A DNA stretch of 44,407 nucleotides from a virus (IMGVR_UViG_3300010279_000003:1-44407), one strand, 5' to 3'. Counted from the first letter of the stretch, positions 12,379 through 33,901 are shown. The notes: generated by a model not told the origin, from the sequence alone. A program made the numbers and translations.

Positions 12379-12407
12379 TTGCACACCCCAATATAATAGG
12401 ATACTAT
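12379..12407 (+). promoter_or_regulatory. Sigma70-like promoter, class B (TTGCAC-N17-TACTAT)
   Basis: Spacer ...AATATAATAGGATACTATTCA; same family found six times. Confidence 0.6.
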
Positions 12408-12441
12408 TCACTTATCGAAACGAGACAGAGGAGTGAGGGTT

Positions 12442-12582
12442 ATGTTTAAGAAAGGTCAGTTGGCGAAAAAGAGGATGAATATGGTGTTGTCGCCGTATTT
12501 AGCCTTATACGGAAGAAACATGGTTACGTTCATCACAATAATTTACAGCTCATCGGCAACAATTTTAAATTCAAAGGGGTGA
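12442..12582 (+). CDS. Small hypothetical protein (~46 aa)
   Basis: Short ORF downstream of promoter with GAGG-type RBS. Confidence 0.35.
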   Translation: MFKKGQLAKKRMNMVLSPYLALYGRNMVTFITIIYSSSATILNSKG

Positions 12583-12586
12583 AGTG

Positions 12587-12790
12587 ATGGAAGAATTATT
12601 TGAAGAACTGAAACACCATAGACTGGAGAAAGTGCACTTCCAGGTAAACAGATACGAGGTTGTTTTATTAGACGGCCCGACTATTTCTTCCGGGGTATGC
12701 GAAGACTTGCTAAAAGTTTTACGTGCGCTACGAACGGCATCGAATCATGATGCTCGTGCCGAAGACTCTGAGGGAGGTTGCCGTGAATAA
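12587..12790 (+). CDS. Hypothetical protein
   Basis: ORF track 12584..12790, ATG at 12587. Confidence 0.5.
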   Translation: MEELFEELKHHRLEKVHFQVNRYEVVLLDGPTISSGVCEDLLKVLRALRTASNHDARAEDSEGGCRE

Positions 12791-12844
12791 GTTTGTTTTA
12801 ATCATCAGCGCCGTTTATGTGGTGCACGCGTTGTGGGGGTTGGT

Positions 12845-13000
12845 ATGAGAATCCGTATAACTGACCGCAGGCTTATAGATTTCGGTATCTCGGTAGGTGA
12901 TGTTTTTCTGGCGTTCAGCAGCAACCATTATGGTTTTATGATTGAGTACAAAGGGTCGTTATTGTTCGTGTATCGGGATGAATGCGAGGTTCTGGTATGA
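12845..13000 (+). CDS. Small hypothetical protein (~51 aa)
   Basis: Short ORF with overlapping stop/start to next ORF. Confidence 0.35.
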   Translation: MRIRITDRRLIDFGISVGDVFLAFSSNHYGFMIEYKGSLLFVYRDECEVLV

Positions 13001-13140
13001 GAGAAGCATTCGAACGGTGGGCCATCGTCGAGGGTTTGCCGATCAACAAGGGTTCGAAGAAAGAGTACCTGAACGTTAAGACGCGTCTCGCGTGGCGGGC
13101 GTGGAAAGCTGGTGTGCAAACTGTGATGAATAAGGTGTGA
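12997..13140 (+). CDS. Small hypothetical protein (~47 aa)
   Basis: Short ORF, ATGA overlap with upstream ORF. Confidence 0.35.
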   Translation: MREAFERWAIVEGLPINKGSKKEYLNVKTRLAWRAWKAGVQTVMNKV

Positions 13141-13143
13141 GAT

Positions 13144-13344
13144 ATGGGTAAGTGGATTAAGTGTAGTGAGCAGATGCCTGCTCCTTTCTCTCATGTACTT
13201 GTGACCGACGGGGACGAGGTTGAGATTAAATGGTTAGATGGTGATTTTGATGAGTGGGGTAGTTGGGAAGAATTCAACTCCAACATAGATAACGGGGATA
13301 TAGCGCACTGGAGGAAAGTACCTAAACCGCCGAAACTGGTGTAA
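13144..13344 (+). CDS. Hypothetical protein (DUF551-like)
   Basis: 66 aa; W...MP...HVLVTDG...W...HWRKVPKPP pattern. Confidence 0.5.
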   Translation: MGKWIKCSEQMPAPFSHVLVTDGDEVEIKWLDGDFDEWGSWEEFNSNIDNGDIAHWRKVPKPPKLV

Positions 13345-13503
13345 CAGGTCAATAGGTTACTATTTGGCTTAGTGGCTTACGCTGCTACACAGCAGCGTAC
13401 AACTTTAACCTAGTGTCGTCAAAAAGCGACACTTCTCTAAGACTCTGTTGGGTCAGGAATAAAGTGTCTCCGATTAGCGACATTAAACACTAATAAAATT
13501 TAC

Positions 13504-13532
13504 TTGCACACTGGGATAGAATAGGCTACTAT
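13504..13532 (+). promoter_or_regulatory. Sigma70-like promoter, class B (TTGCAC-N17-TACTAT)
   Basis: Followed by conserved leader AAACGAGAGGAGAGACAGAG then ATG at 13563. Confidence 0.6.
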
Positions 13533-13562
13533 TCATTTACACAAACGAGAGGAGAGACAGAG

Positions 13563-14042
13563 ATGAGTAACAAAAACGAAGTATTCGAGTACCTGATTGG
13601 CCAGTTACGGCAGCAGGTAAATGGCAACCAGTGTGAAGACCTGGCGCACGAGGTGTTGTCACTCAAGAATCAGTTACGTGATGCGTCAGAACATATTAAG
13701 GAGTTGCATAAGGCGTTGGCTACAGCTACAGGTGACGTAGGCGCTTATATAGCAGCAGAGCAATCTGGTTGCCGTAAGGAAGATACTCAGTACAACGCCT
13801 GGAGGCCGCATTATGGTGCACGACAACCTGTGCCGGATGGGACTATGGTATTTATCCGGTATCGCAACGGGGAGGAGCTGAAACACAGTGTAGCAGCAGA
13901 AAAGAGGTTGTGGATTTGGGATGGAACATACGCAGACATAGTGGAATACAAGATTGACACACAGGAATGTGAACATGACTATCGTTTGGTTCTGTGGTGT
14001 AGCGACTTACAGCAGTGCTCTAAATGCGGGGTGATCAAATGA
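13563..14042 (+). CDS. Hypothetical protein with C-terminal Cys cluster
   Basis: 159-aa ORF. Confidence 0.6.
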   Translation: MSNKNEVFEYLIGQLRQQVNGNQCEDLAHEVLSLKNQLRDASEHIKELHKALATATGDVGAYIAAEQSGCRKEDTQYNAWRPHYGARQPVPDGTMVFIRYRNGEELKHSVAAEKRLWIWDGTYADIVEYKIDTQECEHDYRLVLWCSDLQQCSKCGVIK

Positions 14043-14242
14043 CCAGCATATTATTTATCTGGGTATTGTCCGCAGGCCAGATGCAACTAGCGGCATCAGA
14101 AACGTTTTATTCGATGGAGGCGTGCCAGTCAGCGGCACGCGCCGCAGAGAACGCGCACTTTCTGTTTCAGGGTGACAAGCCCAACGACTCAGAGGTACGC
14201 GCTATCTGCTCACCTAAGCGACTTGGTAAACAGGAGAAGTGA
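14039..14242 (+). CDS. Hypothetical small exported protein (N-terminal signal-like segment)
   Basis: Hydrophobic N-terminus ILFIWVLSAGQMQLAA. Confidence 0.5.
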   Translation: MTSILFIWVLSAGQMQLAASETFYSMEACQSAARAAENAHFLFQGDKPNDSEVRAICSPKRLGKQEK

Positions 14243-14244
14243 TT

Positions 14245-14517
14245 ATGGTTCGGAAATATGAGTTAAAAGAAGACTGCGTTAATGGTCATATCGACTTAGA
14301 GGAAGATACAGACGGTGGCTGGGTTCGCTACGAAGACTACAAGGAACTGGATGACAGTTTCCAGGACTACATAACCGCTACTGACATGGAAATCGAGGGG
14401 CTTGTAGCGAGACTGGCAGAAGTAAACGCCGAGTTACAGAAATACAAAGACCAGTTCCCGGATTACGTCGAGTGCGCGAACTGTGGGTCGGTTACACATG
14501 TGGAAGGGGTGGAGTGA
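14245..14517 (+). CDS. Hypothetical protein
   Basis: ORF track 14239..14517; ATG at 14245 after CAGGAGAAG RBS. Confidence 0.5.
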   Translation: MVRKYELKEDCVNGHIDLEEDTDGGWVRYEDYKELDDSFQDYITATDMEIEGLVARLAEVNAELQKYKDQFPDYVECANCGSVTHVEGVE

Positions 14518-14711
14518 TGGTACAGAGGTATGAGGTGGAAAAATGGGGCCTGCCAGAGCCTGAGATGGCTGAGTACGCATACGGCGATTATGTAGAATAC
14601 GACGCTTATCTTAAACTGGAAGCAAAGTTACGTGAATTCGCTGAACAGGTAATGTACGAACCTTGTTCGAAAGTTACAGAAGAAATGGCCCGCGAGATTC
14701 TCGGAATATGA
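14517..14711 (+). CDS. Hypothetical protein
   Basis: ATG at 14517 overlapping upstream stop. Confidence 0.5.
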   Translation: MVQRYEVEKWGLPEPEMAEYAYGDYVEYDAYLKLEAKLREFAEQVMYEPCSKVTEEMAREILGI

Positions 14712-15001
14712 GCCTTGCAACTGACATCCTGAAACGAAGCGGCCTTGCGCCGCTGTCACCGAGAACGAACACCCGAATATACAAGCGCCGCCGTAACGCG
14801 CTGTACCCTGAGATTCAAGCCAGACGCAAAGCCATCCGCGCCTGCGGATTCCAGAGCGGGAAGGCCGTTAATCTAGGCGAGTTTAAGACGAAGGAACGCG
14901 CAGCAATCGCTAATCGGTTATTTAATTACTGGAAATCGCTGGGATATGATGATATTCCGACGAAACCGCAGAGACGACAATACATCTGGAGACATAAATA
15001 A
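14708..15001 (+). CDS. Hypothetical basic protein
   Basis: ATG at 14708 overlapping upstream stop. Confidence 0.5.
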   Translation: MSLATDILKRSGLAPLSPRTNTRIYKRRRNALYPEIQARRKAIRACGFQSGKAVNLGEFKTKERAAIANRLFNYWKSLGYDDIPTKPQRRQYIWRHK

Positions 15002-15076
15002 ACCGTTATTAAGATAATTCCTAACCGTGCTATCCTCCGGTTACTGCATACTTAATACGCACCTGGAGGATTCATC

Positions 15077-15385
15077 TTGGATAAATTTACTGAAACAGTG
15101 ACAGGCTGGCTTCTCGCTGCCGCGCTAGCCGGAGGGGTAATCGGGCTACGACAACACAAAGCCACTATTACTGGTCCTGTCGATGCTCTCTGTTTTCTCT
15201 CCACTGGATTTGCGTGCGCCGTATTTGGTGCACCTCTCGCCGCCCAATGGTTCGGTATCACCGGCGAGCGCGAGATAGCTGGCCTCGGATTTATCATCGC
15301 TGTCCTCTGGATGCCCATCTATTCCCGCCTCTCCGGTATCGTCGCCGGAGAATATATCGCACGTCGAGGAGGCACAGATGAATGA
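15077..15385 (+). CDS. Putative holin (three predicted transmembrane segments)
   Basis: 102 aa, TTG start 8 nt after GGAGGA; immediately upstream of endolysin. Confidence 0.55.
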   Translation: MDKFTETVTGWLLAAALAGGVIGLRQHKATITGPVDALCFLSTGFACAVFGAPLAAQWFGITGEREIAGLGFIIAVLWMPIYSRLSGIVAGEYIARRGGTDE

Positions 15386-15650
15386 GTTATTCTGGTTCGG
15401 TGGTATGCTGGCAATCGGAGGCGCATCGCTGTTTAATGTGTATCACCCCCGCGTGGATGACGGACTATTTGGCCGGGTGCTCTATATCCTGACTGCTATT
15501 GTCTGCGCCGCCGGAGGCATTCACCTGTTACAGGGCAGCATGTCGCCAACGTTGCCGGAGACATTAATCACATTAGTTGCGCTGCGTCAGATTCGACAGG
15601 CGTGGCTGTCATACGGAGGGCATGAGCGTGTCTCGAAATATTTCCGATAA
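15378..15650 (+). CDS. Membrane protein (second holin component or antiholin)
   Basis: 90 aa, two hydrophobic segments, overlaps holin stop and endolysin start. Confidence 0.45.
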   Translation: MNELFWFGGMLAIGGASLFNVYHPRVDDGLFGRVLYILTAIVCAAGGIHLLQGSMSPTLPETLITLVALRQIRQAWLSYGGHERVSKYFR

Positions 15651-16116
15651 TGGCTTACATTTCTGCGCCGCGTTCGAGGGATTCCGCGGAACTGCGTATC
15701 GTGCTACGCCGAATGAGAAGTACCTGACTATTGGGTACGGTCACTATGGGCCGGACGTAACACCAGGTAAGACCATCACCCCTGGCCAAGGCCTCCTGTT
15801 ACTGAATCGCGATATGGCTAAGGCCGTAGCTGCGGTTGATGCAGCAGCACACCATTCGCTGACACAGGCGCAGTTCGACGCCGTGTGTGACCTGGTCTAT
15901 AACGCCGGTGCAGGTGTGATTGCAGCTACTACTGGCACGGGTAAGGCGCTGCGTTCCGGTGATGTTGCGACGCTACGGGCTAAACTGGCGCTGTTTATCA
16001 ACCAGAACGGCAAACCGCTACTCGGCTTGCGCCGCCGTACAGCGGGTCGTCTGGCGCTGTACGACGGTAAACCGTGGCAGGAGGCTGAGGCTATTGGGCG
16101 CGCGGTGAAAGGTTGA
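15622..16116 (+). CDS. Endolysin, lysozyme (GH24-like)
   Basis: FEGFRGTAY and YLTIGYGH motifs; start ATG 15622 inside ORF-track ORF 15577..16116. Confidence 0.85.
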   Translation: MSVSRNISDNGLHFCAAFEGFRGTAYRATPNEKYLTIGYGHYGPDVTPGKTITPGQGLLLLNRDMAKAVAAVDAAAHHSLTQAQFDAVCDLVYNAGAGVIAATTGTGKALRSGDVATLRAKLALFINQNGKPLLGLRRRTAGRLALYDGKPWQEAEAIGRAVKG

Positions 16117-16183
16117 CACCTAAGACTAATCCGACGATACTTAAATCACCTCCTGTTCCATCCCTCTGCTCTCCAGTTTTATC

Positions 16184-16212
16184 CCGGCCCTGACCCAGCC
16201 GGGATTTTTTTT
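16184..16212 (+). terminator. Intrinsic terminator after the lysis genes
   Basis: Stem CCCGGC/GCCGGG followed by T8. Confidence 0.7.
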
Positions 16213-16234
16213 ATCTATTTTCTGCAATGACTAG

Positions 16235-16263
16235 TTGACTACTACCCTAGACCCTATTATATT
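16235..16263 (+). promoter_or_regulatory. Sigma70-like promoter (TTGACT-N17-TATATT)
   Basis: Followed by leader CGACAACGAGAACGGAGTAGAGAAG and ATG at 16297. Confidence 0.55.
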
Positions 16264-16296
16264 TACTCCATCGACAACGAGAACGGAGTAGAGAAG

Positions 16297-16488
16297 ATGA
16301 AAATTACTAAGATTAAGCATACCGATAACTGGGGTGATTTCCTGGAGATAGAGAAGTGCAGGGATGGTTCATTACTTATAACTTGCACCGACGGAGATAG
16401 TGACGAATTATCTAATGTTAATGTGAGCCTCGATGATTTTATGTCTATTGCTGAGCAGGTTATGGCGTTTTATGGAGATGTTAAATGA
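16297..16488 (+). CDS. Hypothetical protein
   Basis: 63-aa ORF with strong RBS. Confidence 0.5.
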   Translation: MKITKIKHTDNWGDFLEIEKCRDGSLLITCTDGDSDELSNVNVSLDDFMSIAEQVMAFYGDVK

Positions 16489-16634
16489 AAATCACAGATA
16501 TCGAAGCATTCAAAGACGCACAATTGATGGCACGCATCGCCGTTAGTAACCTGAGCAAAAGCATCCCAGCGGCCGCGTTCTGGTTCGCTGCGATGCAGAC
16601 ACTGAAAGCAGCTTATGCAGGAGAGAAGAAATGA
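16485..16634 (+). CDS. Small hypothetical protein (~49 aa)
   Basis: ATGA overlap with neighbours. Confidence 0.35.
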   Translation: MKITDIEAFKDAQLMARIAVSNLSKSIPAAAFWFAAMQTLKAAYAGEKK

Positions 16635-16789
16635 GCGAACAAGGTCAAGTAAGCCAACCGTTACGAGTAGGCCGTAAAGTCAGTCACACCCCGTTCCCGA
16701 CACGCGAGGAACTGATGAAACGAAACAGTTTCTCGGGGCCGGACAAGAACAAGTATCTCAATCGCATGTGGGGAGAGCGTAAAGAATGA
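16631..16789 (+). CDS. Small hypothetical protein (~52 aa)
   Basis: ATGA overlap with neighbours. Confidence 0.35.
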   Translation: MSEQGQVSQPLRVGRKVSHTPFPTREELMKRNSFSGPDKNKYLNRMWGERKE

Positions 16790-16974
16790 CTGACCGTGAA
16801 TACGAGAAAGCCTGTGTAGAAGCGGCACTCCGTCCCACCGACAATGGTGAATCGGAGATTGCTTGCCTGGATACTATGATTCAGTACTACGCAAATAAGG
16901 TAGACCGCCTGATGGAGCAACGTCGTGAACTGATTAACCGCTTCAACCTGAACAAAGGTGACACTAATGCCTAA
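16786..16974 (+). CDS. Hypothetical protein
   Basis: 62-aa ORF. Confidence 0.5.
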   Translation: MTDREYEKACVEAALRPTDNGESEIACLDTMIQYYANKVDRLMEQRRELINRFNLNKGDTNA

Positions 16975-17158
16975 AATCACAATCGCATCACTCGAGCGCC
17001 GTATTCTGGTGCTTGAGTCAGAGAAACAGACGTTAGGCGGGCAACTGTCAATTAACGGTGAATTTCAACTGGCGGCGTTTAAGTTGTTGTTGGAAGAACT
17101 GCGTAATAAGGCTTACGAGGAAGAACTGCGCGAACAGTATGAAGGATCAAGGTTGTGA
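16967..17158 (+). CDS. Hypothetical coiled-coil protein
   Basis: ATG 16967 inside ORF-track ORF 16958..17158. Confidence 0.5.
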   Translation: MPKITIASLERRILVLESEKQTLGGQLSINGEFQLAAFKLLLEELRNKAYEEELREQYEGSRL

Positions 17159-17337
17159 AAGCGCCTGAACCGGTAGTAATTGATGGCGTCCTGTGGAAAC
17201 CCTACTCGGTTAACCACATCGACGCCGACGGGAAGAAGTTTAGCTTCTACATTTTTGCAATTAGCCGTGAGCACGCCGCTTGTGTGGTCGATGATATACG
17301 AGAAACGGCGTGGCTTGGCGATGAGGTAGTGGGGTGA
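17155..17337 (+). CDS. Hypothetical protein
   Basis: GTG start overlapping upstream stop. Confidence 0.45.
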   Translation: MKAPEPVVIDGVLWKPYSVNHIDADGKKFSFYIFAISREHAACVVDDIRETAWLGDEVVG

Positions 17338-17339
17338 TT

Positions 17340-17510
17340 ATGTTCAGTGACATCAACGCAGCAATCGAAGAAGCAATATGGCGGCGCTATAACGGCGAGC
17401 AACAGCGGCACTTTTGCCTCGTGCAACGCGGTAACATGATTGCCGTAGTGCAGGACCGGGATAACAAATATCCGAATGCGATGTGGTCAACGAGGAATTT
17501 CTTAGGATGA
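17340..17510 (+). CDS. Small hypothetical protein (~56 aa)
   Basis: Short ORF, ATGA overlap downstream. Confidence 0.35.
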   Translation: MFSDINAAIEEAIWRRYNGEQQRHFCLVQRGNMIAVVQDRDNKYPNAMWSTRNFLG

Positions 17511-17749
17511 TTACCAGCATTCCTAACCTGATTAAAGAATTCGGCACGATGGCGGAGACATGCCGACAAACTGGCCTCAACGAAATGACGATTGCTAAGT
17601 ACAGCAAAGACGTGAAATGTGAGCGCCACGTAATTTATAACAACCGTCTTATGACGCATGTTAAGACAAGCCCGGTGTTATTCACTCGCCGCGGTATCAC
17701 TAAAACTGAGCAACGCATTGCTAAAGAGGAGAACGAATGCGGCTACTAA
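17507..17749 (+). CDS. Hypothetical protein
   Basis: ATG 17507 inside ORF-track ORF 17483..17749. Confidence 0.5.
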   Translation: MITSIPNLIKEFGTMAETCRQTGLNEMTIAKYSKDVKCERHVIYNNRLMTHVKTSPVLFTRRGITKTEQRIAKEENECGY

Positions 17750-17842
17750 TCATCCCTAACGTCTGGGCTATCGCTGTAGCTAACAACCATTACGGCGGCG
17801 ATGGTAAAAGAGCACCACGACACGGCCTGTATAACTGATACA

Positions 17843-17867
17843 AGCCCTCTACGGAGGGCTTTTCTGT
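17843..17867 (+). terminator. Intrinsic terminator at the end of the early plus-strand block
   Basis: Stem AGCCCTC/GAGGGCT, loop TACG, then TTTTCTG. Confidence 0.55.
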
Positions 17868-17959
17868 ACATCCCGCCCAATCCCCTTATATAATCCCTTT
17901 AGACGCGTAGGGCGCGTCTGGTGCGCTCTGATGGTCAGACGCATATGCAAGGGGATTAT

Positions 17960-18505
17960 ATGAAGCTGAAACTCAAGCAGCCATCGCCAGAGGTGGTGCA
18001 AGCTGCACATGAAGAAGCTGTTAGCGCAAACCGTCGCCGTAAACGACCGCGCGGTAAACAGAGCCTTTATCAATCATCCCGTAATTCCGCCGCGTTGTGG
18101 GACCCGGACTATTGCGACGAATTGATTCGTTTCTTCGACCGCACGTCGTGGGAGCTTGTGCCTACCTCCAAAGGCGACGAACGCCCGCTGATTCAGGACA
18201 AACCGCCGTCACTGGCCCGCTTTGCCTTACGCATCGGCGTCACTATCCCGATTATTAAGCTGTGGCTGCGCGAGATTCCCGCATTCGCAGAAGCATGGGA
18301 GACAGCGCAGGCATTGGAAGAGGCATACTTCACTGAGACAGGGGCCGCAGGTATCTCTGCTACGTTTGCCGCTGCGAAACTTGGCCTTGGCAAAGAGAAA
18401 CCAGTTGAATCCGCCGAAGAAACGGCACCGACTGAGATTATTTTCAGTGTTGCGGAGCCTGTAGGTAAAATTGTAACAACGAACATGGGTGAGGTAGAGG
18501 AATGA
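17960..18505 (+). CDS. terS: Putative terminase small subunit
   Basis: Position immediately upstream of terL with overlapping stop/start; basic N-terminal region; ATG 17960 inside ORF-track ORF 17921..18505. Confidence 0.5.
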   Translation: MKLKLKQPSPEVVQAAHEEAVSANRRRKRPRGKQSLYQSSRNSAALWDPDYCDELIRFFDRTSWELVPTSKGDERPLIQDKPPSLARFALRIGVTIPIIKLWLREIPAFAEAWETAQALEEAYFTETGAAGISATFAAAKLGLGKEKPVESAEETAPTEIIFSVAEPVGKIVTTNMGEVEE

Positions 18506-19752: not shown

Positions 19753-19764
19753 GAGGATTATTCA

Positions 19765-21234: not shown

Positions 21235-21242
21235 AATAGAAA

Positions 21243-21268
21243 AGCCCCATTACGGGGCTTTATTTTAT
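21243..21268. terminator. Bidirectional intrinsic terminator between portal (+) and 21265..21447 (-)
   Basis: Stem AGCCCC/GGGGCT with T-rich tracts on both sides. Confidence 0.6.
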
Positions 21269-21447
21269 ACATCTCTGCTCGCCAGATAGTCACAGCGAGC
21301 TATGGCTAAGGATAAGCTACGGTATGCGCTATCGGATTTAGCGTGGGTAAACCCAGAAATCATTACGTAATACACCCCTTTATCGTTTAGAACCCAGTAT
21401 TTGCCGTTTTCGTGCATTATGTCTTTTTCTTTGAACATTTTAACCAC
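21265..21447 (-). CDS. Hypothetical protein, orphan minus-strand gene in the late region
   Basis: 60 aa; own class B promoter and RBS. Confidence 0.5.
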   Translation of the reverse strand: MVKMFKEKDIMHENGKYWVLNDKGVYYVMISGFTHAKSDSAYRSLSLAIARCDYLASRDV

Positions 21448-21467
21448 CCCCTGTTTAAGTTATCTGA

Positions 21468-21496
21468 ATAGTACCCTATTATATTGGTGTCTGCAA
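21468..21496 (-). promoter_or_regulatory. Sigma70-like promoter, class B (TTGCAG-N17-TACTAT)
   Basis: Read on minus strand; about 45 bp nearly identical to the copy at 24318..24346. Confidence 0.6.
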
Positions 21497-23740: not shown

Positions 23741-23744
23741 TAAA

Positions 23745-23773
23745 AGGCCCCATAATGGGGCCTTAGTTTTATT
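23745..23773. terminator. Bidirectional intrinsic terminator
   Basis: Stem AGGCCCC/GGGGCCT, loop ATAAT, T-rich tail. Confidence 0.6.
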
Positions 23774-24290
23774 TAAATCGCGCAGGCATTAACACCATAA
23801 AGGCCGTGTTTGAAAATTGTATTTTGCATCCTCTGGTTTGGTCCTGGAAATCGAAACGAGCAATTTCATTTTTGTATGCCTTAGAAATCTTGTACGCGTC
23901 TGCCAAATAGCGCAGAGTGAACCCTATACTGTCGACAACACCCGGTGTGATGTGCGCCACGCGTCTCCAGTCAGGAAAGTTTCCTTCTACAACATCTACC
24001 GGAAGTGTACATATAAGCGCACGATTATCGTCATAGAAAGATACACTGCCGTTGTCGTGGTTTACCTCTGCGTAGTTAAATTTAGAAGGCTCTCTCCCTT
24101 TGATGTCTATGAGAGTCCCTTTCTCAACGTTGGTCTTCACATTGTCGCAGAACAATCTATGACTGTCCGTAGACACTATCAATCCTTCAGGGTCTATGTA
24201 AAAAGCGTTCAAATAGTAGCGCACATCATTTTTAGCCCTGCATATTTTCGCCCCTACATACGCAGGGAAAGTAATTACTGTAGTAACCAT
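23769..24290 (-). CDS. Truncated beta sliding clamp (DnaN) homologue: domain II plus the C-terminal half of domain III, no domain I
   Basis: Matches to E. coli DnaN as I recall it: DVRYYLN, TDSHRL (vs TDGHRL), FPDWRRV (vs FPDYRRV), IGF..YL.D, C-terminal VLMPARF (vs VVMPMRL); own promoter and AGGAG RBS. Confidence 0.7.
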   Translation of the reverse strand: MVTTVITFPAYVGAKICRAKNDVRYYLNAFYIDPEGLIVSTDSHRLFCDNVKTNVEKGTLIDIKGREPSKFNYAEVNHDNGSVSFYDDNRALICTLPVDVVEGNFPDWRRVAHITPGVVDSIGFTLRYLADAYKISKAYKNEIARFDFQDQTRGCKIQFSNTAFMVLMPARFK

Positions 24291-24317
24291 TTATCATCTC
24301 CTGTTTAAGTTAACTGA

Positions 24318-24346
24318 ATAGTACCCTATTATATTGGTGTGCGCAA
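24318..24346 (-). promoter_or_regulatory. Sigma70-like promoter, class B (TTGCGC-N17-TACTAT) driving the DnaN-like gene
   Basis: Read on minus strand; conserved leader TTAACTTAAACAGGAG follows. Confidence 0.6.
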
Positions 24347-24399: not shown

Positions 24400-24413
24400 A
24401 CTATTCGAATAGT
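24400..24413. promoter_or_regulatory. Perfect 14-bp palindrome ACTATTCGAATAGT (operator-like)
   Basis: Read directly; built from the ACTATTC element found in the promoter family; abuts TTGACT at 24413. Confidence 0.5.
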
Positions 24414-24441
24414 TGACTTTTCACTAAAAATATGATAAGCT
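24413..24441 (+). promoter_or_regulatory. Candidate promoter (TTGACT-N17-TAAGCT)
   Basis: Consensus -35, weak -10; same TAAG-T type -10 as the candidate at 12024..12052. Confidence 0.35.
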
Positions 24442-24447
24442 CCACCT

Positions 24448-24645
24448 GAGCTTGTGAAGTATGAGCAAGCGACCGCGGCGCGGCAGGTAACGGAGCTGGA
24501 CGTAAGTCCTGAGTGTAGTTACGCTGACGCGTTCGGAAGGGCCATACTCTATTGCTTGTGTAAAAAGTAACTGGTTTACTGAGATTACGCCGTTTCTATG
24601 TTTAAATGATAAGGACTAGCGCCCCGCTTTAAGGCGGGGCTTTAC
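24448..24645 (+). ncRNA. Candidate non-coding transcript or leader (~200 nt) between promoter and terminator
   Basis: No ORF of 60 aa or more in the ORF track; only very short ORFs or a 37-codon GTG frame without convincing RBS. Confidence 0.3.
24621..24645 (+). terminator. Intrinsic terminator upstream of the spanin genes
   Basis: Stem GCCCCGC/GCGGGGC, loop TTTAAG, T-rich tail. Confidence 0.55.
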
Positions 24646-25944: not shown

Positions 25945-25946
25945 TA

Positions 25947-26996: not shown

Positions 26997-27012
26997 GGTT
27001 AAGCTATAATCG

Positions 27013-27040
27013 AGAGGGACTTCGGTCCCTCTTTTCATTT
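27013..27040 (+). terminator. Intrinsic terminator after the capsid gene
   Basis: Stem AGAGGGAC/GTCCCTCT, loop TTCG, T-rich tail. Confidence 0.7.
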
Positions 27041-27055
27041 ACTAAGAGGTAAATT

Positions 27056-27355
27056 ATGGCTAAGACTGGAAAAGGCTTGCCGCGCAGCCTTCAGAATGTC
27101 GATTTCGGCGACTTTGATATCCCTGTCGCACCTGCTACTACCAGCGTAGTTGGTGGGGTTAAAAAGTCAGCTACTGTGGATGCACCTGCGGCCGTTACCG
27201 CAGCCGCAGGGGAGCAGTCCGCTGCTGAACCGACTAAAGTCGAGTTCGACGCGCTTGTAGCGGAGTACAACAAACTCCTAACCGATGTTACCGCGCTGCG
27301 CACTACCGTAGCGAACCTGTTAACCGCGCTTAAAAACGCAGGAACTGTAAGCTAA
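27056..27355 (+). CDS. Hypothetical head-associated protein
   Basis: 99 aa, Ala-rich; AAGAGG RBS. Confidence 0.5.
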   Translation: MAKTGKGLPRSLQNVDFGDFDIPVAPATTSVVGGVKKSATVDAPAAVTAAAGEQSAAEPTKVEFDALVAEYNKLLTDVTALRTTVANLLTALKNAGTVS

Positions 27356-27367
27356 AGGAGATTAAAA

Positions 27368-27715
27368 ATGGTTGATGTAATTAAACGTCGTATTACCGGT
27401 GTTTCTGATGAAGACTCTGACGGTCAGGTTGAAATCGACATGGCAAACATCTCTCCAGCGTCTTTTTCTACCGCACTGAGCGCCACCACAGCAGTTACAG
27501 CCGGGCAGACTATGACACTGACCGTAGTTGTTACTGGTGGTCTGGAGCCGTATTCCTACCAGTGGTACAAGAACAACAACGCTATCGCCGGGGCAAACGC
27601 GGCTTCCTATGCGAAGGCGTCCACCACTACCGCCGATTCAGGTACGTATAAAGTGGTTGTTCACGACGTGTATGGTAATATTATCTCCAGCAGCACTAAA
27701 GTAACCGTGTCTTAA
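27368..27715 (+). CDS. Ig-like domain protein
   Basis: PYSYQWYKNNNAI...SGTYKVVVHDVYG pattern. Confidence 0.5.
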   Translation: MVDVIKRRITGVSDEDSDGQVEIDMANISPASFSTALSATTAVTAGQTMTLTVVVTGGLEPYSYQWYKNNNAIAGANAASYAKASTTTADSGTYKVVVHDVYGNIISSSTKVTVS

Positions 27716-27751
27716 TACAATGGCCCTTCGGGGCCGTAATAAGGAAAGGTC

Positions 27752-27931
27752 ATGACAGATAATTATGTAATCCGTGAAAAGTACACCCACGTCGATATTG
27801 TCGATGGCCAGGTAATGCCCGTCCGCGGTGTTGTGGAAGCGGATGCGCTGGATGCAGCACAACCGGACAACGAAGAAGCGCACAACAACGGCGGTGGCAC
27901 TAAGCGTCGTCGCCGTAAGTCAGAGGAATAA
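27752..27931 (+). CDS. Small hypothetical protein (~59 aa)
   Basis: Short ORF with AAGGAAAGG RBS. Confidence 0.35.
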   Translation: MTDNYVIREKYTHVDIVDGQVMPVRGVVEADALDAAQPDNEEAHNNGGGTKRRRRKSEE

Positions 27932-27934
27932 TTT

Positions 27935-28447
27935 ATGCCGCTAATCGTGGAAACTGGGGCAATCGTCCCGAATGCCGACAGTTACATTAGTCTGGCTGAC
28001 GCCCGCGCGTTAGCGGCTAATTATGGTCTTGAGTTACCCGCTGACGATACTGCCGCCGAAGTAGCCTTGCGCAACGGCGCTACTTATGTCGGGCTTGTAG
28101 AACCGCAGATGTGTGGTCGTCGTGTATCCGCGGAGCAGTCCCTGGCGTATCCTCGCACTGGTGTAACGTTGAATGGTTTTCCTGTAGCCAATAACGTAAT
28201 CCCTAAACAGGTAATTCTTGCGCAGGTAATCGCCGCTGCTACATATGGTGCCGGTACTGAGGTGCGGGCTAACTCTGATGGGCGTTCCGTGCAGACTGAG
28301 CGTGTCGAGGGTGCGGTAACAGTGACCTACTTCAACAACGGCAGCAGTGGTGCTACGACCGCGATTACCGCTGCAGACGACGCCTTACGCCCGTTACTGT
28401 GCGGTGGTCTTAACAATGGCTTCTCGTTTAATGTGTACCGGGGTTAA
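27935..28447 (+). CDS. Hypothetical structural protein (possible head-tail connector)
   Basis: 170 aa; position in head-to-tail joining region. Confidence 0.45.
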   Translation: MPLIVETGAIVPNADSYISLADARALAANYGLELPADDTAAEVALRNGATYVGLVEPQMCGRRVSAEQSLAYPRTGVTLNGFPVANNVIPKQVILAQVIAAATYGAGTEVRANSDGRSVQTERVEGAVTVTYFNNGSSGATTAITAADDALRPLLCGGLNNGFSFNVYRG

Positions 28448-28449
28448 AA

Positions 28450-29064
28450 ATGGCGAAGACTAAATCTGAGATATTTACCCTTATAGGGCAGGAGTTACCC
28501 GACAACACGACGGGGCTTATCACTCCGGCCAAGCTGCGCGGTGTTCTTACGCAGATGGCTGACTCACCTATTTACGCCACTCCTGGCGTTAAAGAGGTTG
28601 AAGTTCTCCGTGCCGCGTCTACCGTAACACAAGCGCCTACCGCGGTAGATACGGCATTGCAGTTAACTTTCGGTCCCGCGCAGGGTAGCGCATCTGACCC
28701 GGTAATGATTAATGCAGCGGGTCTGGTTACGTTCAACACTGCAGGCAACTACGCCGTTCGCATCAAGTTACAGGCGGGGCGCACTGGAGCGAGCGGGACG
28801 TCCGTCCTGTTATCGCGCATTCTTCTTAACGGCGCACAGTACGCCTCGCCAGCAGCTACTAAACTGGTAAGTGCTGATACTACAATCCCGATTGAATCTC
28901 GCGTCGTTATTAACACAACCGCAGGCCAGACGTTTGCTGTTCAGATTATGCGGGATAGTGCCGGGACCAACTTCGGCGGCGTATATCTGCAAGTTGCTAC
29001 CGTAACCGCATGGGGTACAGCACCATCCGCATTACTGGTTATTTCGAGACTGGAGGCCGCCTGA
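28450..29064 (+). CDS. Hypothetical structural protein
   Basis: 204-aa ORF. Confidence 0.5.
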   Translation: MAKTKSEIFTLIGQELPDNTTGLITPAKLRGVLTQMADSPIYATPGVKEVEVLRAASTVTQAPTAVDTALQLTFGPAQGSASDPVMINAAGLVTFNTAGNYAVRIKLQAGRTGASGTSVLLSRILLNGAQYASPAATKLVSADTTIPIESRVVINTTAGQTFAVQIMRDSAGTNFGGVYLQVATVTAWGTAPSALLVISRLEAA

Positions 29065-29158
29065 TGAATAAGTTCACATGTGGTGTAGTTTTTGGTTTTC
29101 TTACCGCGGTAGTCTTGCACAGTTACGGTGTTCTTTTGACGCTGCAAGAGGTGCTAAA

Positions 29159-29518
29159 ATGAGCACCGCTTTCAGTAAACGTATGCAAGGCGTCGGTACA
29201 CGCCTGCTAACCAAATTCGGTAGCACGGTATCTCTTGTTCGCGCTGGCTCGAAAGTGTGGGATGAAGTTCTCGGTGAGTATGTCCGGTCCGCGGATGAAG
29301 TGCTGCCGTTGAAAGCTGTTCCGGTTCCTGTTAACGCAGGACTGGTGAACGGTACGACGATTCAGGCGGGCGACATGATTGTTAAAGCCGATTGCAGCGT
29401 CGTTCCGAAGATGGAAGACAAGGTACAATTCGGCGGCGAGCAATGGTCTGTCGTAGGTATCGAGAAGAAGATGGTTAACGATGATGTCGTGGCGTATTTT
29501 ATTCAGGTGAGAAAATGA
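29159..29518 (+). CDS. Putative head-tail joining protein
   Basis: ATG 29159 with GAGGTG RBS inside ORF-track ORF 29078..29518. Confidence 0.45.
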   Translation: MSTAFSKRMQGVGTRLLTKFGSTVSLVRAGSKVWDEVLGEYVRSADEVLPLKAVPVPVNAGLVNGTTIQAGDMIVKADCSVVPKMEDKVQFGGEQWSVVGIEKKMVNDDVVAYFIQVRK

Positions 29519-29910
29519 GTTTCGCGCTTGATGTCTCTAAGTTCGTGGAAAAGGCGAAGAAGAATCCTGAGAAGGTGATGCGTCAGGTGTCTATTAAGCT
29601 GTTTTCCGCTATCATAAAGGCGAGTCCGGTAGATACAGGCCGCTTTCGTATGAACTGGATGGCATCTGGCGGTACTCCTGCTTCCGGGGTTACAGATGCT
29701 ACGGATAAATCAGGAAACACGGCAACCGGAAACGCTACGAGTTTCATACTGAAAGCCGCCGACTGGCGCGAGTTCACGCTGACAAATAACCTGCCGTATG
29801 CACAACGGCTGGAGTATGGCTGGTCACAACAGGCTCCCGCCGGGATGGTCAGGACTAACGTGTCTCGCTTCCAGCAACTAATTAACGAAGAAGCCAACAA
29901 GGTGAAATGA
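29515..29910 (+). CDS. Tail completion protein (HK97 gp10-like)
   Basis: PVDTGRFRMNW motif. Confidence 0.55.
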   Translation: MSFALDVSKFVEKAKKNPEKVMRQVSIKLFSAIIKASPVDTGRFRMNWMASGGTPASGVTDATDKSGNTATGNATSFILKAADWREFTLTNNLPYAQRLEYGWSQQAPAGMVRTNVSRFQQLINEEANKVK

Positions 29911-30323
29911 TGGGCTACTTTGAGGACTTAACAAAAGCGTTCGACGTGCCGCTGGTAGCCTTCGGAACCGCCAACGGCATCAAGGTTGCGCTTGAAAACA
30001 TCGACGCGCCGACGTCAACCGATACGCCGTATCTGGCAAGTTACATGTTACTTGCGGATACAGAACAGGCGGATTTGTTCTTCACAGAACAACGCTCAGG
30101 TGTTTATCAGGTCGACATTAACTACGCATCGGTGAAAGGTAGCGCGCCAATCAATAAAATGGCAGACTTACTTAACACGGCATTTAAAGCAGGTAAGTCA
30201 TTTTCACGTAACGACATCTGCGCCGAGGTTCAATCGGTAAGCCTGGGGCCGCTGATTGTAGAAAACGGATGGGCCAAACGACCATTGTCAATTAACTTTA
30301 TTGCATTCACCAAGAGGCTGTAA
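29907..30323 (+). CDS. Putative tail terminator protein
   Basis: 138 aa immediately upstream of major tail gene. Confidence 0.45.
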   Translation: MMGYFEDLTKAFDVPLVAFGTANGIKVALENIDAPTSTDTPYLASYMLLADTEQADLFFTEQRSGVYQVDINYASVKGSAPINKMADLLNTAFKAGKSFSRNDICAEVQSVSLGPLIVENGWAKRPLSINFIAFTKRL

Positions 30324-30325
30324 AT

Positions 30326-31492
30326 ATGGCTACAACTCCTTTTAAGGGCGCGAATACAGCGCAATTCTATGTGGCGGAAGTGACCCCGGGCGTAACCCCA
30401 GACAACCCTGTCTGGTCGCCGCTGCGCAATACGGGCGGTGTTCCTGCGGTAACCCGCGATGCGCTGACCTCCAACGAACTCGACGGCAGCCGAGAAACTA
30501 CATCCATCCGAACCGGCAACAAACAGGTTAGCGGGGAGTACGCCATCGAACTTAGCTCCCGTAGCCAGGATGATTTCCTCGCGGGTGCTATGACTTCTAC
30601 GTGGCAAGTTGGGGTAGAGATTACGGGTGCAGAAATTAAGGTCGCTCCAGCAGGTAAAACATTCACCCGCGCTGCTGGTAGCTTCATTACTGACGGTGTA
30701 GAAGTTGGCGACCTGATTGCGTTCACCGACTTAACCGGCGACAACGCAAAACCGTTTATCGTGACCGAGGTTTCTGCTCTTGTAGTTACGGGTTCTGGCA
30801 TTCAACACACGCTGACAGCAGAGACTGTAACCACCGACGCTAAAACTGGCGATAAACTGGAAACCGGTAACGCGTGTAAGACGTTCTCCATCCTGACATG
30901 GTTCAAAGGACAGTGCGGGAACCCTGACGCGTACATGTTAACCAAAGGCGTGGAAATCTCCGGTTTCACCATTGAACAGGCCGTAAACGCGATGGTGACA
31001 GGCAGCTTCCCGTTCATCGGCCTGAGTCAGGAGATTCTTTCCGGGCCGCCGGCAGGTTCCGACTTCTCTCAGGTCACATTCACTGACGAGCCGTTCTCAT
31101 CCGTAGATGTGTCTGTGTTCGACGGTTCTACGCCGTTGCGTTGCGATACTCTGACCATCACCAACGACAACGGTGCTTCCGCGCAGTTTGAACTTGGCAA
31201 CAGTAGCGTCGCGTTCGTGGAACGCGGCCGCGCAGCTAACACATTCTCCATCTCCGGCAAGCTGTACGACATGGCGATGATTCAGAAGTTTATCAACGAA
31301 CAGCAGGTAGAGATTAACTCTATTCTGGCGGGGGTAAACGGGGCTATGTCTTTCAGTTTGAAACGTGCCGAGTTGACCGCAGTTACGCCAGAGATTGGCG
31401 GGCCTGAGTCAATCACTCAGAGCATAGAAGGACAGTCCACAGGCAATCAATATCAATCTTCTATTGTAATACAGCGTATTAGCTACGCGTAA
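30326..31492 (+). CDS. Major tail protein
   Basis: 388 aa, Thr/Gly-rich, followed by terminator; assignment by position. Confidence 0.6.
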   Translation: MATTPFKGANTAQFYVAEVTPGVTPDNPVWSPLRNTGGVPAVTRDALTSNELDGSRETTSIRTGNKQVSGEYAIELSSRSQDDFLAGAMTSTWQVGVEITGAEIKVAPAGKTFTRAAGSFITDGVEVGDLIAFTDLTGDNAKPFIVTEVSALVVTGSGIQHTLTAETVTTDAKTGDKLETGNACKTFSILTWFKGQCGNPDAYMLTKGVEISGFTIEQAVNAMVTGSFPFIGLSQEILSGPPAGSDFSQVTFTDEPFSSVDVSVFDGSTPLRCDTLTITNDNGASAQFELGNSSVAFVERGRAANTFSISGKLYDMAMIQKFINEQQVEINSILAGVNGAMSFSLKRAELTAVTPEIGGPESITQSIEGQSTGNQYQSSIVIQRISYA

Positions 31493-31496
31493 GGAA

Positions 31497-31523
31497 AAGG
31501 CCCCGAAAGGGGCCTTACTATTT
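31497..31523. terminator. Bidirectional intrinsic terminator
   Basis: Stem AAGGCCCC/GGGGCCTT, loop GAAA; T-rich on the minus side. Confidence 0.6.
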
Positions 31524-31582
31524 ACCGTGGTTCTCGTGGAACCCTAAATCTCTTTCAGCAACTCTCCTCGCAGCAACTGCAT

Positions 31583-32014
31583 CTAGTAGCGTTTTAAAGC
31601 ATCCGATGTGTGTGTTTTTACGTTATTGTTGAATATCTGTGCATACCACAACCTTTCTTTCGCGTTCCAGTAAACCCCGGTTACTCCTGATTTATTATTA
31701 CGCTGTTTTGACATATTTTTATGATTTTCCGCATTGGACTTTTTAGCTAAGTTAAGCGGTCTATTGTTTATTCGGTTATGGTCTAGATGGTCTATTTGAT
31801 CTGACGAGGTTAGCTTATCGTTAGGATTATTTAAGTCCCAAGCTATACGGTGCGCCGCGTGCCATTTACCCCTGAAAAATATCCTTCTATACCCGTCTCG
31901 CTGTACAGTACCTGCCTCCTCTCCAGCCTTAGCCCTCCCAGACCGTGTTACTCTGTTAAATATCCTTCCTGAAATTAAGTCGTATATGAAAAATTCATTC
32001 CAGTCCATAATCAT
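31583..32014 (-). CDS. HNH homing endonuclease with AP2 domain
   Basis: SDQIDHLDHNRINNRPLNL (HNH_3-like) and GVTGVYWNAKERLWYAQI (AP2-like). Confidence 0.75.
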   Translation of the reverse strand: MIMDWNEFFIYDLISGRIFNRVTRSGRAKAGEEAGTVQRDGYRRIFFRGKWHAAHRIAWDLNNPNDKLTSSDQIDHLDHNRINNRPLNLAKKSNAENHKNMSKQRNNKSGVTGVYWNAKERLWYAQIFNNNVKTHTSDALKRY

Positions 32015-32027
32015 CTCCTGTTGCGAT

Positions 32028-32055
32028 AAGGCCCCTTTCGGGGCCTTTTTCTTTA
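32028..32055 (+). terminator. Hairpin with T-tail in plus orientation, inside the minus-strand accessory operon
   Basis: Stem AAGGCCCC/GGGGCCTT, loop TTTC, then TTTCTTT. Confidence 0.45.
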
Positions 32056-32283
32056 CTCATCAATATTATCCCTGTACTCCCGTAACTTCTCCAGACTTTC
32101 AATTGCTTCTGCTAAGTCGGTTCCGGTGTCCTTGTGTCCGCGAAGGCCCATACACAACAGCTTCTTCAATGCGTGCTGTAGCGCCGGGTCCCGGATATCG
32201 AAGGCGCGGAGCACATCATAAACATCTACTGTCATAGTGCTGCCGTGGGTATTTGTCATTGTGCGGTTGTATTTATTTGTCAC
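32053..32283 (-). CDS. Hypothetical protein
   Basis: 76-aa ORF in operon. Confidence 0.5.
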   Translation of the reverse strand: MTNKYNRTMTNTHGSTMTVDVYDVLRAFDIRDPALQHALKKLLCMGLRGHKDTGTDLAEAIESLEKLREYRDNIDE

Positions 32284-32473
32284 TGTTAACTCTCTTAAAT
32301 CGGGCTATGCCTGACTCGTTAATGCTGCCTATTTCAAAGAAGCTGCGATATTTAGGCGAATACATTCTTACGTCGCCGTTCTCTAGGGTGACCCCTTCAT
32401 ATACCGCACCTACTTCGAATCCATTTTTCTCCGCGTACGGACTCACATCGGTGCATTCATACATATCTTTCAT
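32273..32473 (-). CDS. Hypothetical protein
   Basis: 66-aa ORF in operon. Confidence 0.5.
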   Translation of the reverse strand: MKDMYECTDVSPYAEKNGFEVGAVYEGVTLENGDVRMYSPKYRSFFEIGSINESGIARFKRVNSDK

Positions 32474-33600
32474 CCCAGCATCTCCGGTGAAATAGTTAAA
32501 CGTGCGACCTCGCCATATTCGGCGCTATAAGTAATTACGTTTGCACTACGGCCCGACATCCATCCGCCGCGGGAGGCGTAGGCGTCTTTGGCCGCTAAGG
32601 TGCGGTGTTGCTCAACAATCATGTTACGGCTTTCTACAATCTTCTGGTGGTGCAGGTGGCCTACGTGGGCGTAGCTGTAAACACTCTCACCGAACGCTTT
32701 GCGGAACTTGGCAATCATAACCGGTTCAATAGCGTCGAATCGTGCTTTATGCCCGTGATGGAAGAACAGCGTAGTTTTGCCGTGTTGCACCATCTTGTAA
32801 ACATCCGGCGACGTATCGACAATCACTCGGCTGTCGTTTGAGTATAAAACCGTGAACATTTCGGCAAGCCATACGGAGCCGACAGGGTCGTGATTTCCTT
32901 GCACGATAAGCAAGCGAACATTTTTGTGCTTAACCAGCGCCATATCAACGACACGGCGTACCATACGAATCATGTAGCGTACAAGTTTCTGATAGCGGGT
33001 GTCCGCATCAAGAACATGGCGCGACTCTGGCGTAACGGCATCCAGGCTATCGAAGTGCGCGAAGTCTCCTAGCAGATTAATAACACCCGTTCCTGCGTCA
33101 GGCGCTTTCTGGAATGCTGCATCGAACCATCGAGAGAACAGGTCTTCCGCGATTTTCATATCCCAGTCGTCGCCGCTCTCGTCCGCCCATGCCAGCATAC
33201 CGAGATGAAAATCAGATACCGTGTAAAGATTGAGTAGCTTGTCGTCACGTTTGGCGCGTGCCACTTTAACAGGCGCAACGGGGGTAATCTCTGACTTCAT
33301 GCCTTCGATTACGGCCTTCATTAACTCGACCTGACGTTCTGCGTCAGTGTCGGTCTTAACCCATTGCAGTTTAGTGTTGCCGAACTCGTCCACCAGAGAC
33401 GACGTACCTTTAATCTTGTAGCCGTCAGGCACAAGGTGACTAACGTCGCGACCGTGGCCTACACCTTTCTTAGCCAGCTTCGCTTTACGGATACGGATAA
33501 CGCGGTCTGAGATTCCGTACTTACGTGCGATATCAATAATTTTTGTTCCGGCGTTCAATTCTTCCCGTAACTGTTCGTCGGTTATTTTCTTATGAGCCAT
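32470..33600 (-). CDS. HTH-domain protein fused to a calcineurin-like metallophosphoesterase (SbcD/Mre11-like motifs)
   Basis: N-terminal HTH (IIDIARKYGISDRVIRIRKAK); MPP motifs SDFHLG, GDFAHFD, GNHD, GHLHH. Confidence 0.7.
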   Translation of the reverse strand: MAHKKITDEQLREELNAGTKIIDIARKYGISDRVIRIRKAKLAKKGVGHGRDVSHLVPDGYKIKGTSSLVDEFGNTKLQWVKTDTDAERQVELMKAVIEGMKSEITPVAPVKVARAKRDDKLLNLYTVSDFHLGMLAWADESGDDWDMKIAEDLFSRWFDAAFQKAPDAGTGVINLLGDFAHFDSLDAVTPESRHVLDADTRYQKLVRYMIRMVRRVVDMALVKHKNVRLLIVQGNHDPVGSVWLAEMFTVLYSNDSRVIVDTSPDVYKMVQHGKTTLFFHHGHKARFDAIEPVMIAKFRKAFGESVYSYAHVGHLHHQKIVESRNMIVEQHRTLAAKDAYASRGGWMSGRSANVITYSAEYGEVARLTISPEMLG

Positions 33601-33639
33601 GCTTTACTTCCTCGTGTTTAGGATTTGTCCTATACTAGC

Positions 33640-33831
33640 TCACTTCTCTTTGACATTCGAGTTGCACGCCCAGATTAAAATAAATACCCACGGCAGCAGA
33701 ACCCAACCGAGAAACAGATTAGCCATGAATATCGCTAATTTAGCTTTATGGTTGCGCATATGCGCCACGAGAAATGGGATAAAATAAACTAAAACGATAA
33801 TGATTAAGAAGAACATAGTAATACCTGTCAT
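33640..33831 (-). CDS. Small membrane protein resembling the superinfection-immunity (Imm) family
   Basis: AIFMANLFLGW...W...LIWA pattern; family recalled from memory. Confidence 0.55.
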   Translation of the reverse strand: MTGITMFFLIIIVLVYFIPFLVAHMRNHKAKLAIFMANLFLGWVLLPWVFILIWACNSNVKEK

Positions 33832-33872
33832 GGGGTAGCTCCTGTTTGAGTTAACATTGTTGGTGTAAGTGA

Positions 33873-33901
33873 ATAGTATCCTATTATGTTGGGGTGTGCA
33901 A
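33873..33901 (-). promoter_or_regulatory. Sigma70-like promoter, class B (TTGCAC-N17-TACTAT) driving the accessory operon
   Basis: Read on minus strand; spacer ACCCCAACATAATAGGA. Confidence 0.6.

Follow-up and report, generated by a model that had tools for sequence, protein, structure and literature searches.

The stretch of viral DNA analysed here, IMGVR_UViG_3300010279_000003 (44,407 nucleotides; the window), carries a repeated promoter with a short palindrome embedded in it, and this element and the transcription units behind it are the subject of this text. By megablast of positions 12000-34000 the window matched Kagunavirus phages such as fEg-Eco19 and Ivi (~90% identity), and with the full gene order of the genus present the 44.4-kb sequence is essentially the whole genome of a Kagunavirus (Guernseyvirinae), a lytic E. 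coli phage. Its main gene blocks are the following:

~800-11950, leftward: replication module
12440-16120, rightward: small genes and lysis genes
Packaging, head and tail genes: rightward, interrupted by short minus-strand units

No integrase or full-length CI-type repressor was shown in the relatives, and the phage appears to be strictly lytic. Rfam held no family matching the window.

The original prediction had placed six copies of a TTGC(A/G)(C/G)-N17 promoter between positions 12379 and 33901. Five copies match the pattern TTGCRS-N17-TACTATTCA exactly, as opposed to none in 100 dinucleotide-preserving shuffles; these shuffles gave the expected counts for the promoter pattern, and those for palindromes were obtained by palindrome counting and Markov simulations. 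We refer to the five as class A and list them with the embedded palindrome, the predicted operator, and the genes that each would drive:

12379-12410, plus strand: class A promoter with -35 box TTGCAC, 17-bp spacer and -10 box TACTAT (12402-12407); operator AATAGGATACTATT at 12395-12408, overlapping the -10 box; small open reading frames (ORFs) from 12442
13504-13535, plus strand: class A promoter; operator AATAGGCTACTATT at 13520-13533; the gene at 13563-14042 (plus strand), then downstream small genes, holins and endolysin
21465-21496, minus strand: class A promoter; operator at 21467-21480; gene for 60 amino acids at 21265-21447 (minus strand)
24315-24346, minus strand: class A promoter; operator at 24317-24330; gene for 173 amino acids at 23769-24290 (minus strand)
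33870-33901, minus strand: class A promoter; operator at 33872-33885; accessory operon 33831-31583 (minus strand)

The repeated promoter is therefore real and non-random, and the interpretation first given to it was correct in part. Because the copy at 16235, which had been counted as a variant, lacks the shared spacer, the earlier observation is right for five of the six sites; 16235 is a generic TTGACT-N17-TATATT promoter and belongs to another class. The placement just upstream of gene starts was borne out, with an ATG preceded by a Shine-Dalgarno sequence 25-45 nt downstream of each of the five exact copies. The leader TTAACTyAAACAGGRG, ascribed to the three minus-strand copies, was likewise found there, twice exactly and once with a single mismatch (0.1 expected). 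This shared leader, TTAACTTAAACAGGAG, lies at 24298-24313, 21448-21463 and 33839-33854, all on the minus strand, and resembles the 'epsilon' translational enhancer of T7 gene 10, TTAACTTTA, with a Shine-Dalgarno sequence behind it. A second leader type, AAACGAGAGGAG, follows the promoters at 12379, 13504, 8950 and 16235.

The motif reads well as a sigma-70-type promoter (TTGCAC, 17-bp spacer, TACTAT), and we infer that it fires as one. By count, class A (TTGCAC-N17-TACTAT) agrees with the consensus at 7 of 12 hexamer positions, and a second group of promoters, class B (TTGACA-N17-TATAGT), at 10-11 of 12; in both classes a gene preceded by a Shine-Dalgarno sequence begins 25-45 nt further on. 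A TATAAT within the class A spacer was weighed as an alternative -10 box and discarded, since no position varies more among the relatives than its first T and a -35 box at suitable distance is missing.

The conserved 'spacer' contains a 14-bp palindrome, AATAG-N4-CTATT, which is the commonest palindrome of the window, with nine exact copies and four copies with one mismatch compared to an expected total of 1.0 when up to one mismatch is allowed. These sites exist and are not there by chance. The Kagunavirus form of the palindrome is longer (TGAATAG-N4-CTATTAT), and it is placed on promoters in three ways: class A has it across the -10 box, class B between the two boxes, where it takes up the spacer, and class C over the -35 box in degenerate form. 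Class A and class B promoters have only the palindrome and its immediate flanks (TG...AT) in common, and these asymmetric flanks have opposite orientations relative to transcription in the two classes. Beyond class A the window holds the following sites:

3118-3146, minus strand: class B promoter TTGACG-N17-TATAGT; spacer operator AATAGCGAGCTATT at 3123-3136; upstream of nuclease and helicase genes
6782-6810, minus strand: class B promoter TTGACA-N17-TATAGT; spacer operator at 6787-6800; upstream of the genes for single-stranded DNA-binding protein and DNA polymerase
8922-8950, minus strand: class B promoter TTGACA-N17-TATAGT; spacer operator at 8927-8940; would drive 8369-8890 (minus strand) and the exonuclease gene, and is oriented away from the XRE gene
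8971-8984, plus strand: operator with one mismatch, AATATGGTACTATT, over the extended -10 box TGgTACTAT (8975-8983) of the XRE promoter
13351-13364: exact operator AATAGGTTACTATT, an orphan lacking a usable -35 box; the operator at 13520 lies 169 bp downstream
16230-16263, plus strand: class C promoter TTGACT-N17-TATATT; degenerate palindrome ACTAGTTGACTACT over the -35 box; leads into small genes, terminase and portal
24408-24441, plus strand: class C promoter TTGACT-N17-TAAGCT; palindrome with one mismatch, AATAGTTGACTTTT, over the -35 box
37925-37959, minus strand: variant promoter TTGCCA-N17-TAGCAT; palindrome with one mismatch at 37925-37938; would drive 37154-37900 (minus strand)

The orphan operator at 13351 adjoins two hairpins (13381-13400 and 13411-13485) and is kept in part of the relatives, Jerseyvirus among them; it might act as an auxiliary site in looping. 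At the 16235-type promoter the palindrome over the -35 box (window 16230-16243; L002 30470; L001 3776) reads ACTAGTTGACTACT, or AATAGTTGACTAGT in Jerseyvirus, either of which we take to resemble the core of the E. coli trp operator, ACTAGTTAACTAGT.

The family is thus larger than in the original prediction, and the same palindrome ranked top in the relatives examined: Ivi (7 copies), K1ind1 (5), Jersey (4) and Ent3 (4). Comparison of five orthologous promoters between Kagunavirus and Jerseyvirus separated its parts clearly, as the half-sites were identical at 49 of 50 positions, the central four bases at 4 of 20 (chance level) and the flanks at 61 of 120 (51%), with Fisher tests giving P = 3e-11 for half-sites vs centre and P = 1e-10 for half-sites vs flanks. 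Within Kagunavirus, as counted on IMG/VR fragments, each half-site position had 0.2 variant states on average, compared to 2.0 for central and 1.65 for flanking positions; the IMG/VR scan for TGAATAGNNNNCTATTATA mixed chance matches with Kagunavirus-like contigs and served as a source of orthologous fragments, being uninformative on distribution. The distance from the -35 box to the palindrome was 4, 7 or 10 nt depending on promoter and genus, i.e. it changed in 3-bp steps, and in the Jerseyvirus immunity promoter a 3-bp deletion had turned the -10 box from TACTAT into TATTAT with the palindrome retained. Selection acts on the half-sites and not on the central four bases, and the operator is independent of the promoter hexamers. 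Since the half-sites are fixed, the centre is free and the position shifts, the pattern is that expected of an operator for a dimeric helix-turn-helix protein and not of a promoter part: an inverted repeat with conserved half-sites and a free centre, lying over the -10 box, the spacer or the -35 box. What had been described as a conserved spacer belonging to the promoter is thus predicted to be a separable palindromic operator, and these promoters would therefore be switched and not simply 'early'. With moderate confidence we favour the reading that they are sigma-70 promoters under a common phage repressor acting at the embedded 14-bp operator, most likely the XRE protein.

A different origin of the conserved spacer is conceivable, namely that no protein binds it and that it is only the trace of a mobile promoter cassette recently duplicated or spread by gene conversion. 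The class A copies are indeed near-identical over 32 nt, including the non-palindromic spacer bases (ACACCCCAATAT), and promoter and leader are conserved at junctions of differing cargo, as recombination boundaries would be. However, class B promoters have the palindrome too, and otherwise nothing in common with class A; between genera it persists although flank identity has fallen to 51% and that of the central four bases to chance; and it keeps its sequence as it moves with respect to the -35 and -10 boxes. We therefore regard duplication alone as quite unlikely.

The same element has been reported before. In phage fBC-Eco01, seven 'Phage RNAP promoters' (RNAP, RNA polymerase) with the consensus tgAATAGTa-ccTATTat-T were found with PHIRE (PMC9825357), at positions homologous to those in the window and including three reverse-strand sites in the structural region (PMC9825357); the 24413-type promoter was listed there as a host promoter (PMC9825357). 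Seven PHIRE promoters were also reported in the paper on the kagunavirus Golestan. Because the motif was already listed for a sister phage, our result is a refinement and not a discovery; these papers omit the palindrome, the -35/-10 frames, the class B promoters and the link to XRE. Their label implies promoters for a phage-encoded or phage-modified RNA polymerase, and the same 20-mers are tabulated as 'Phage RNAP promoter' PP1-PP7 (PMC9825357, Table S2). PHIRE, however, finds only repeated words, and these repeats lie in canonical -35/17-bp/-10 frames; in three of the frames 10-11 of the 12 hexamer bases agree with the consensus. The annotations of Ivi, K1ind1, Ent3 and the other relatives contain no RNA polymerase gene, and synteny assigns every large ORF of the window to a known replication or structural gene. 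As these phages carry no RNA polymerase gene, the label is not credible, and we give this explanation next to no weight.

Under the favoured reading, repression at a phage operator, two small proteins of the window come into question as the binder:

9015-9230, plus strand: XRE/HTH_3 protein of 71 amino acids; stand-alone gene with a terminator at 9219-9239
11777-11947, minus strand: HTH_17 (excisionase-like) protein of 56 amino acids; alternative candidate binder

The XRE protein matched the HTH_3 domain at 2.3e-12, and its best matches among solved structures were 434 Cro and 434 repressor (E ~1e-5). The 14-bp operators of 434 Cro/repressor and P22 C2 have a centre without contacts and a like overall geometry. 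A small HTH_3 protein is thus encoded right beside operators, with sites 44 and 88 nt upstream of the XRE start codon; the centres of these two operators (8971 and 8927) are 44 bp apart. Six XRE lineages drawn from IMG/VR and GenBank (39-100% identity) had an AWTAS-N4-STAWT site 42-50 nt upstream of the start codon, in five of the six a second site lay in the divergent promoter, and across the lineages the half-site drifted from AATAG through ATTAG/AATAC to AATAC. In Cornellvirus we counted five AWTAS-type sites (0.2-0.5 expected), with the same class B architecture TTGACA-N4-ATTAG-N4-GTATT-ATAGT; a direct-repeat scan of SE1 gave no promoter family, and the Cornellvirus family became visible only with the half-site relaxed to AWTAS. 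In the Klebsiella phage VLCpiS11a the sole intergenic site with at most one mismatch sits on the XRE promoter. These data point to the 434-Cro-like XRE protein as the most likely binder, and we favour it over HTH_17.

Several points weigh against this reading. The XRE proteins of Kagunavirus and Jerseyvirus are only 48% identical and differ in their recognition helices (QGAINQ vs QSLITH), and the half-sites of the two genera are identical; the helices of Jerseyvirus and Cornellvirus XRE are more alike, yet their half-sites differ. HTH_17 is much better conserved than XRE, at 88% identity between the two genera; its helix-turn-helix is nearly invariant, in keeping with the invariant half-sites. 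Among the genomes examined it is present in both genera with strict AATAG sites and absent from the Cornellvirus and VLCpiS11a genomes, which also lack the strict AATAG-N4-CTATT family, and the 443 phage records that match it belong, judged by organism name, to Kagunavirus- or Jerseyvirus-like phages. Measured against the consensus, class A promoters rate only as moderate, and a generic promoter scan missed them. The RNA-seq of phage K1B4, to which we return below, does not resolve the timing. It is also still conceivable that a host factor is the binder; the sites of ArgR, TrpR, OxyR and Fur were considered and appear not to fit in spacing or half-site sequence.

Alternatively, HTH_17 would bind the operators of the same regulon and XRE would be just one of its targets. 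The HTH_17 promoter (12008-11980, minus strand) carries no palindrome and hence no operator, and a helix-turn-helix gene is among the four earliest of K1B4, although equating that gene with HTH_17 is a guess. Against this, Cornellvirus retains the operator-in-promoter architecture without HTH_17, position-fixed sites are tied to the XRE gene across six lineages, and small excisionase-like proteins usually bind direct repeats and not 14-bp palindromes. We consider HTH_17 as the binder a possible but rather unlikely reading. The surroundings of the two genes also differ between genera. In Cornellvirus (PhiSTP1 14353-17001; SE1 4112-7002) XRE is the first gene of the primase operon and no HTH_17 gene is present, and in Kagunavirus and Jerseyvirus the primase block is inverted with HTH_17 at its head (cf. 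window 9015-11953), which leaves XRE in a unit of its own that converges on the primase gene.

The three minus-strand class A copies head independent units that run antisense in the head and tail operons. Each unit ends at a bidirectional GC-rich hairpin that is also the terminator of the preceding plus-strand operon:

21241-21261: bidirectional terminator of the unit with the 60-amino-acid gene
23744-23764: bidirectional terminator of the unit with the 173-amino-acid gene
31498-31520: bidirectional terminator of the accessory operon
33831-31583, minus strand: accessory operon with superinfection-immunity protein, metallophosphoesterase and small ORFs

The hairpins at 21241, 23744 and 31498 are the copies read on both strands, and since they have T-runs on both sides they end convergent units. 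They belong to a near-identical GC-rich hairpin family, AAGGCCCC-N4-GGGGCCTT, with members at 766-784, 6055-6072, 21241-21261, 23744-23764, 31498-31520 and 32028-32047. The GC content of the cassettes is 0.40-0.47 vs 0.51-0.57 in their surroundings, and their cargo varies among IMG/VR relatives while promoter and leader stay conserved; the 60-amino-acid gene, for example, is absent from Ivi and K1ind1, and an amidase gene stands at the same position in Jerseyvirus. The gene at 23769-24290 (minus strand) had been labelled 'DnaN-like', a label that is weak, as the Pfam match to DNA_pol3_beta_2 scored 17 bits (cutoff 27); among PHROG families it matched best (2e-35) one whose annotation is RusA-like Holliday junction resolvase. 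A fourth antisense cassette, absent from the original prediction, occupies 37154-37959 (minus strand) between tape-measure and tail genes and encodes, at 37154-37900, a protein of 248 amino acids that contains T5orf172/MUG113 and CapR domains. No such gene stands here in Ivi or K1ind1, and the fetched loci yielded no orthologue of the cassette's promoter region.

Morons, as described by Hendrix and colleagues, are independent promoter-gene-terminator units in the late operons of lambdoid phages. The three minus-strand units have this promoter-gene-terminator anatomy between late genes, a sporadic distribution and an atypical base composition, and are complete moron-like cassettes, antisense, in a lytic phage. 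They share with morons their own promoter and terminator, lower GC content, and a presence and cargo that vary among close relatives; unlike morons, they are antisense to the late operons and use one phage-wide type of promoter and operator, shared with essential replication genes. As the phage is lytic, expression from a prophage cannot be the point of these cassettes. Since the operator is shared, the minus-strand units are probably under common control with the replication promoters.

The position of the minus-strand class A sites, exactly where plus-strand late operons would have to restart or read through after the bidirectional terminators, would also suit a two-way switch, in which the bound protein, like protein p4 of phage phi29, would shut the leftward cassette promoter and permit or activate rightward late transcription from the weak promoter overlapping it (e.g. 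TTAAGT-N16-TATTAT). Weak rightward hexamers can be read at the window's sites, and in Jerseyvirus the immunity palindrome lies between back-to-back promoters, TTGACG-N17-TATTAA and TTGCAT-N17-TATTAT. The rightward hexamers are, however, poor and inconsistent, the head morphogenesis start codon is ~20 nt or less from the putative start and has no Shine-Dalgarno sequence, and a protein bound to the palindrome would cover both promoters. Late expression could also be reached through class C promoters and possible antitermination, and we regard the switch as unlikely.

Returning to plain repression, the original prediction had held that the minus-strand units are expressed with the early genes. 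Their co-regulation is a fair inference from the shared regulatory element; 'early' timing is unproven. The unit behind 13504 continues into the holin and endolysin genes, with no plus-strand terminator-like site found between. The only time course of a kagunavirus, the RNA-seq of K1B4, sampled 5-120 min at a latent period of 30 min (PMC12645636). Four early genes were reported, one of them a helix-turn-helix gene (PMC12645636), and the superinfection-immunity gene shares a class with DNA polymerase and methylases and is not among the four earliest (PMC12645636). These data are coarse, consisting of gene-level time classes that span several infection rounds, with phage gene numbers that are not exactly mappable (PMC12645636). 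The grouping is compatible with co-regulation of class A and class B and says little on order. The operator-free promoters at 12008 (minus strand) and 12025 (plus strand) appear to be better candidates for immediate-early expression.

Two promoter-to-terminator units without an ORF were also seen. One, at 12025-12306, consists of TTGACA-N17-TAAGGT and a terminator at 12286-12306; the other, at 24413-24640, consists of TTGACT-N17-TAAGCT and a terminator at 24621-24640, and lies directly before the spanin, scaffold and capsid genes. Both could be small-RNA genes, and by analogy with lambda PR'-tR' the unit at 24413-24640 could be a leader for antiterminator action.

In the mechanism that we favour, about a dozen promoters of this phage would be host sigma-70 promoters with an AATAG-N4-CTATT operator built in. 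A dimeric phage helix-turn-helix protein on the operator would block RNA polymerase, and the sites would therefore define one negatively controlled regulon. Its members would be the rightward units of small genes and lysis genes, the three class B promoters of the replication genes, and the moron-like antisense cassettes, three or four in number. The XRE protein would be the binder in view of the sites in both its own promoter and the promoter facing away. A plausible purpose of repression would be to silence the antisense cassette promoters once rightward late transcription crosses them. A more far-reaching version, which we put forward as speculation that may well fail, is that one Cro-like protein runs the whole temporal programme of a strictly lytic siphovirus through a dozen operators of graded affinity, perfect ones at replication and cassette promoters and degenerate ones at late-leading promoters, silencing the antisense morons as late transcription crosses them, and that the palindrome cassette is at the same time a portable boundary for cargo swaps in the structural module.

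The arrangement resembles the lambdoid Cro/CI systems (434 Cro/OR; P22 C2) in several respects: a small HTH_3 protein that is closest, among solved structures, to 434 Cro and 434 repressor, a 14-bp operator with two conserved half-sites and an unconstrained centre over promoter cores, and two sites in a divergent promoter region beside the regulator gene. It differs in that this phage is seemingly strictly lytic, that some dozen operators are scattered genome-wide instead of forming one or two clusters, and that the regulator gene stands alone and converges on the primase gene; operator binding is here predicted from sequence. Variable gene cassettes bounded by promoters have a reported parallel in the PeSL promoter cassettes of T4-type phages, which Arbiol et al. 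2010 are said to have described. As in those, near-identical promoters and leaders bracket a variable small-gene cargo, and the edges are conserved where relatives differ. Unlike PeSL, the conserved part has no stem-loop and its core is predicted to be a protein-binding palindrome, at which recombination may occur. Old promoter studies reportedly exist for phage MB78, possibly a relative, one of which is said to describe a 'phage-specific factor'. Recognising Cro-type repressor-operator control combined with morons here would be an incremental advance and brings no new principle.

The Guernseyvirinae (Kagunavirus, Jerseyvirus) are among the phages most often proposed for therapy and biocontrol of E. 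coli K1 and Salmonella. Reading the repeat as an operator gives a testable map of the regulon, in which superinfection-immunity and other accessory cassettes would be among the co-controlled genes, and it names two small candidate regulators. The same reading would offer phage engineering a compact and portable promoter/operator module.

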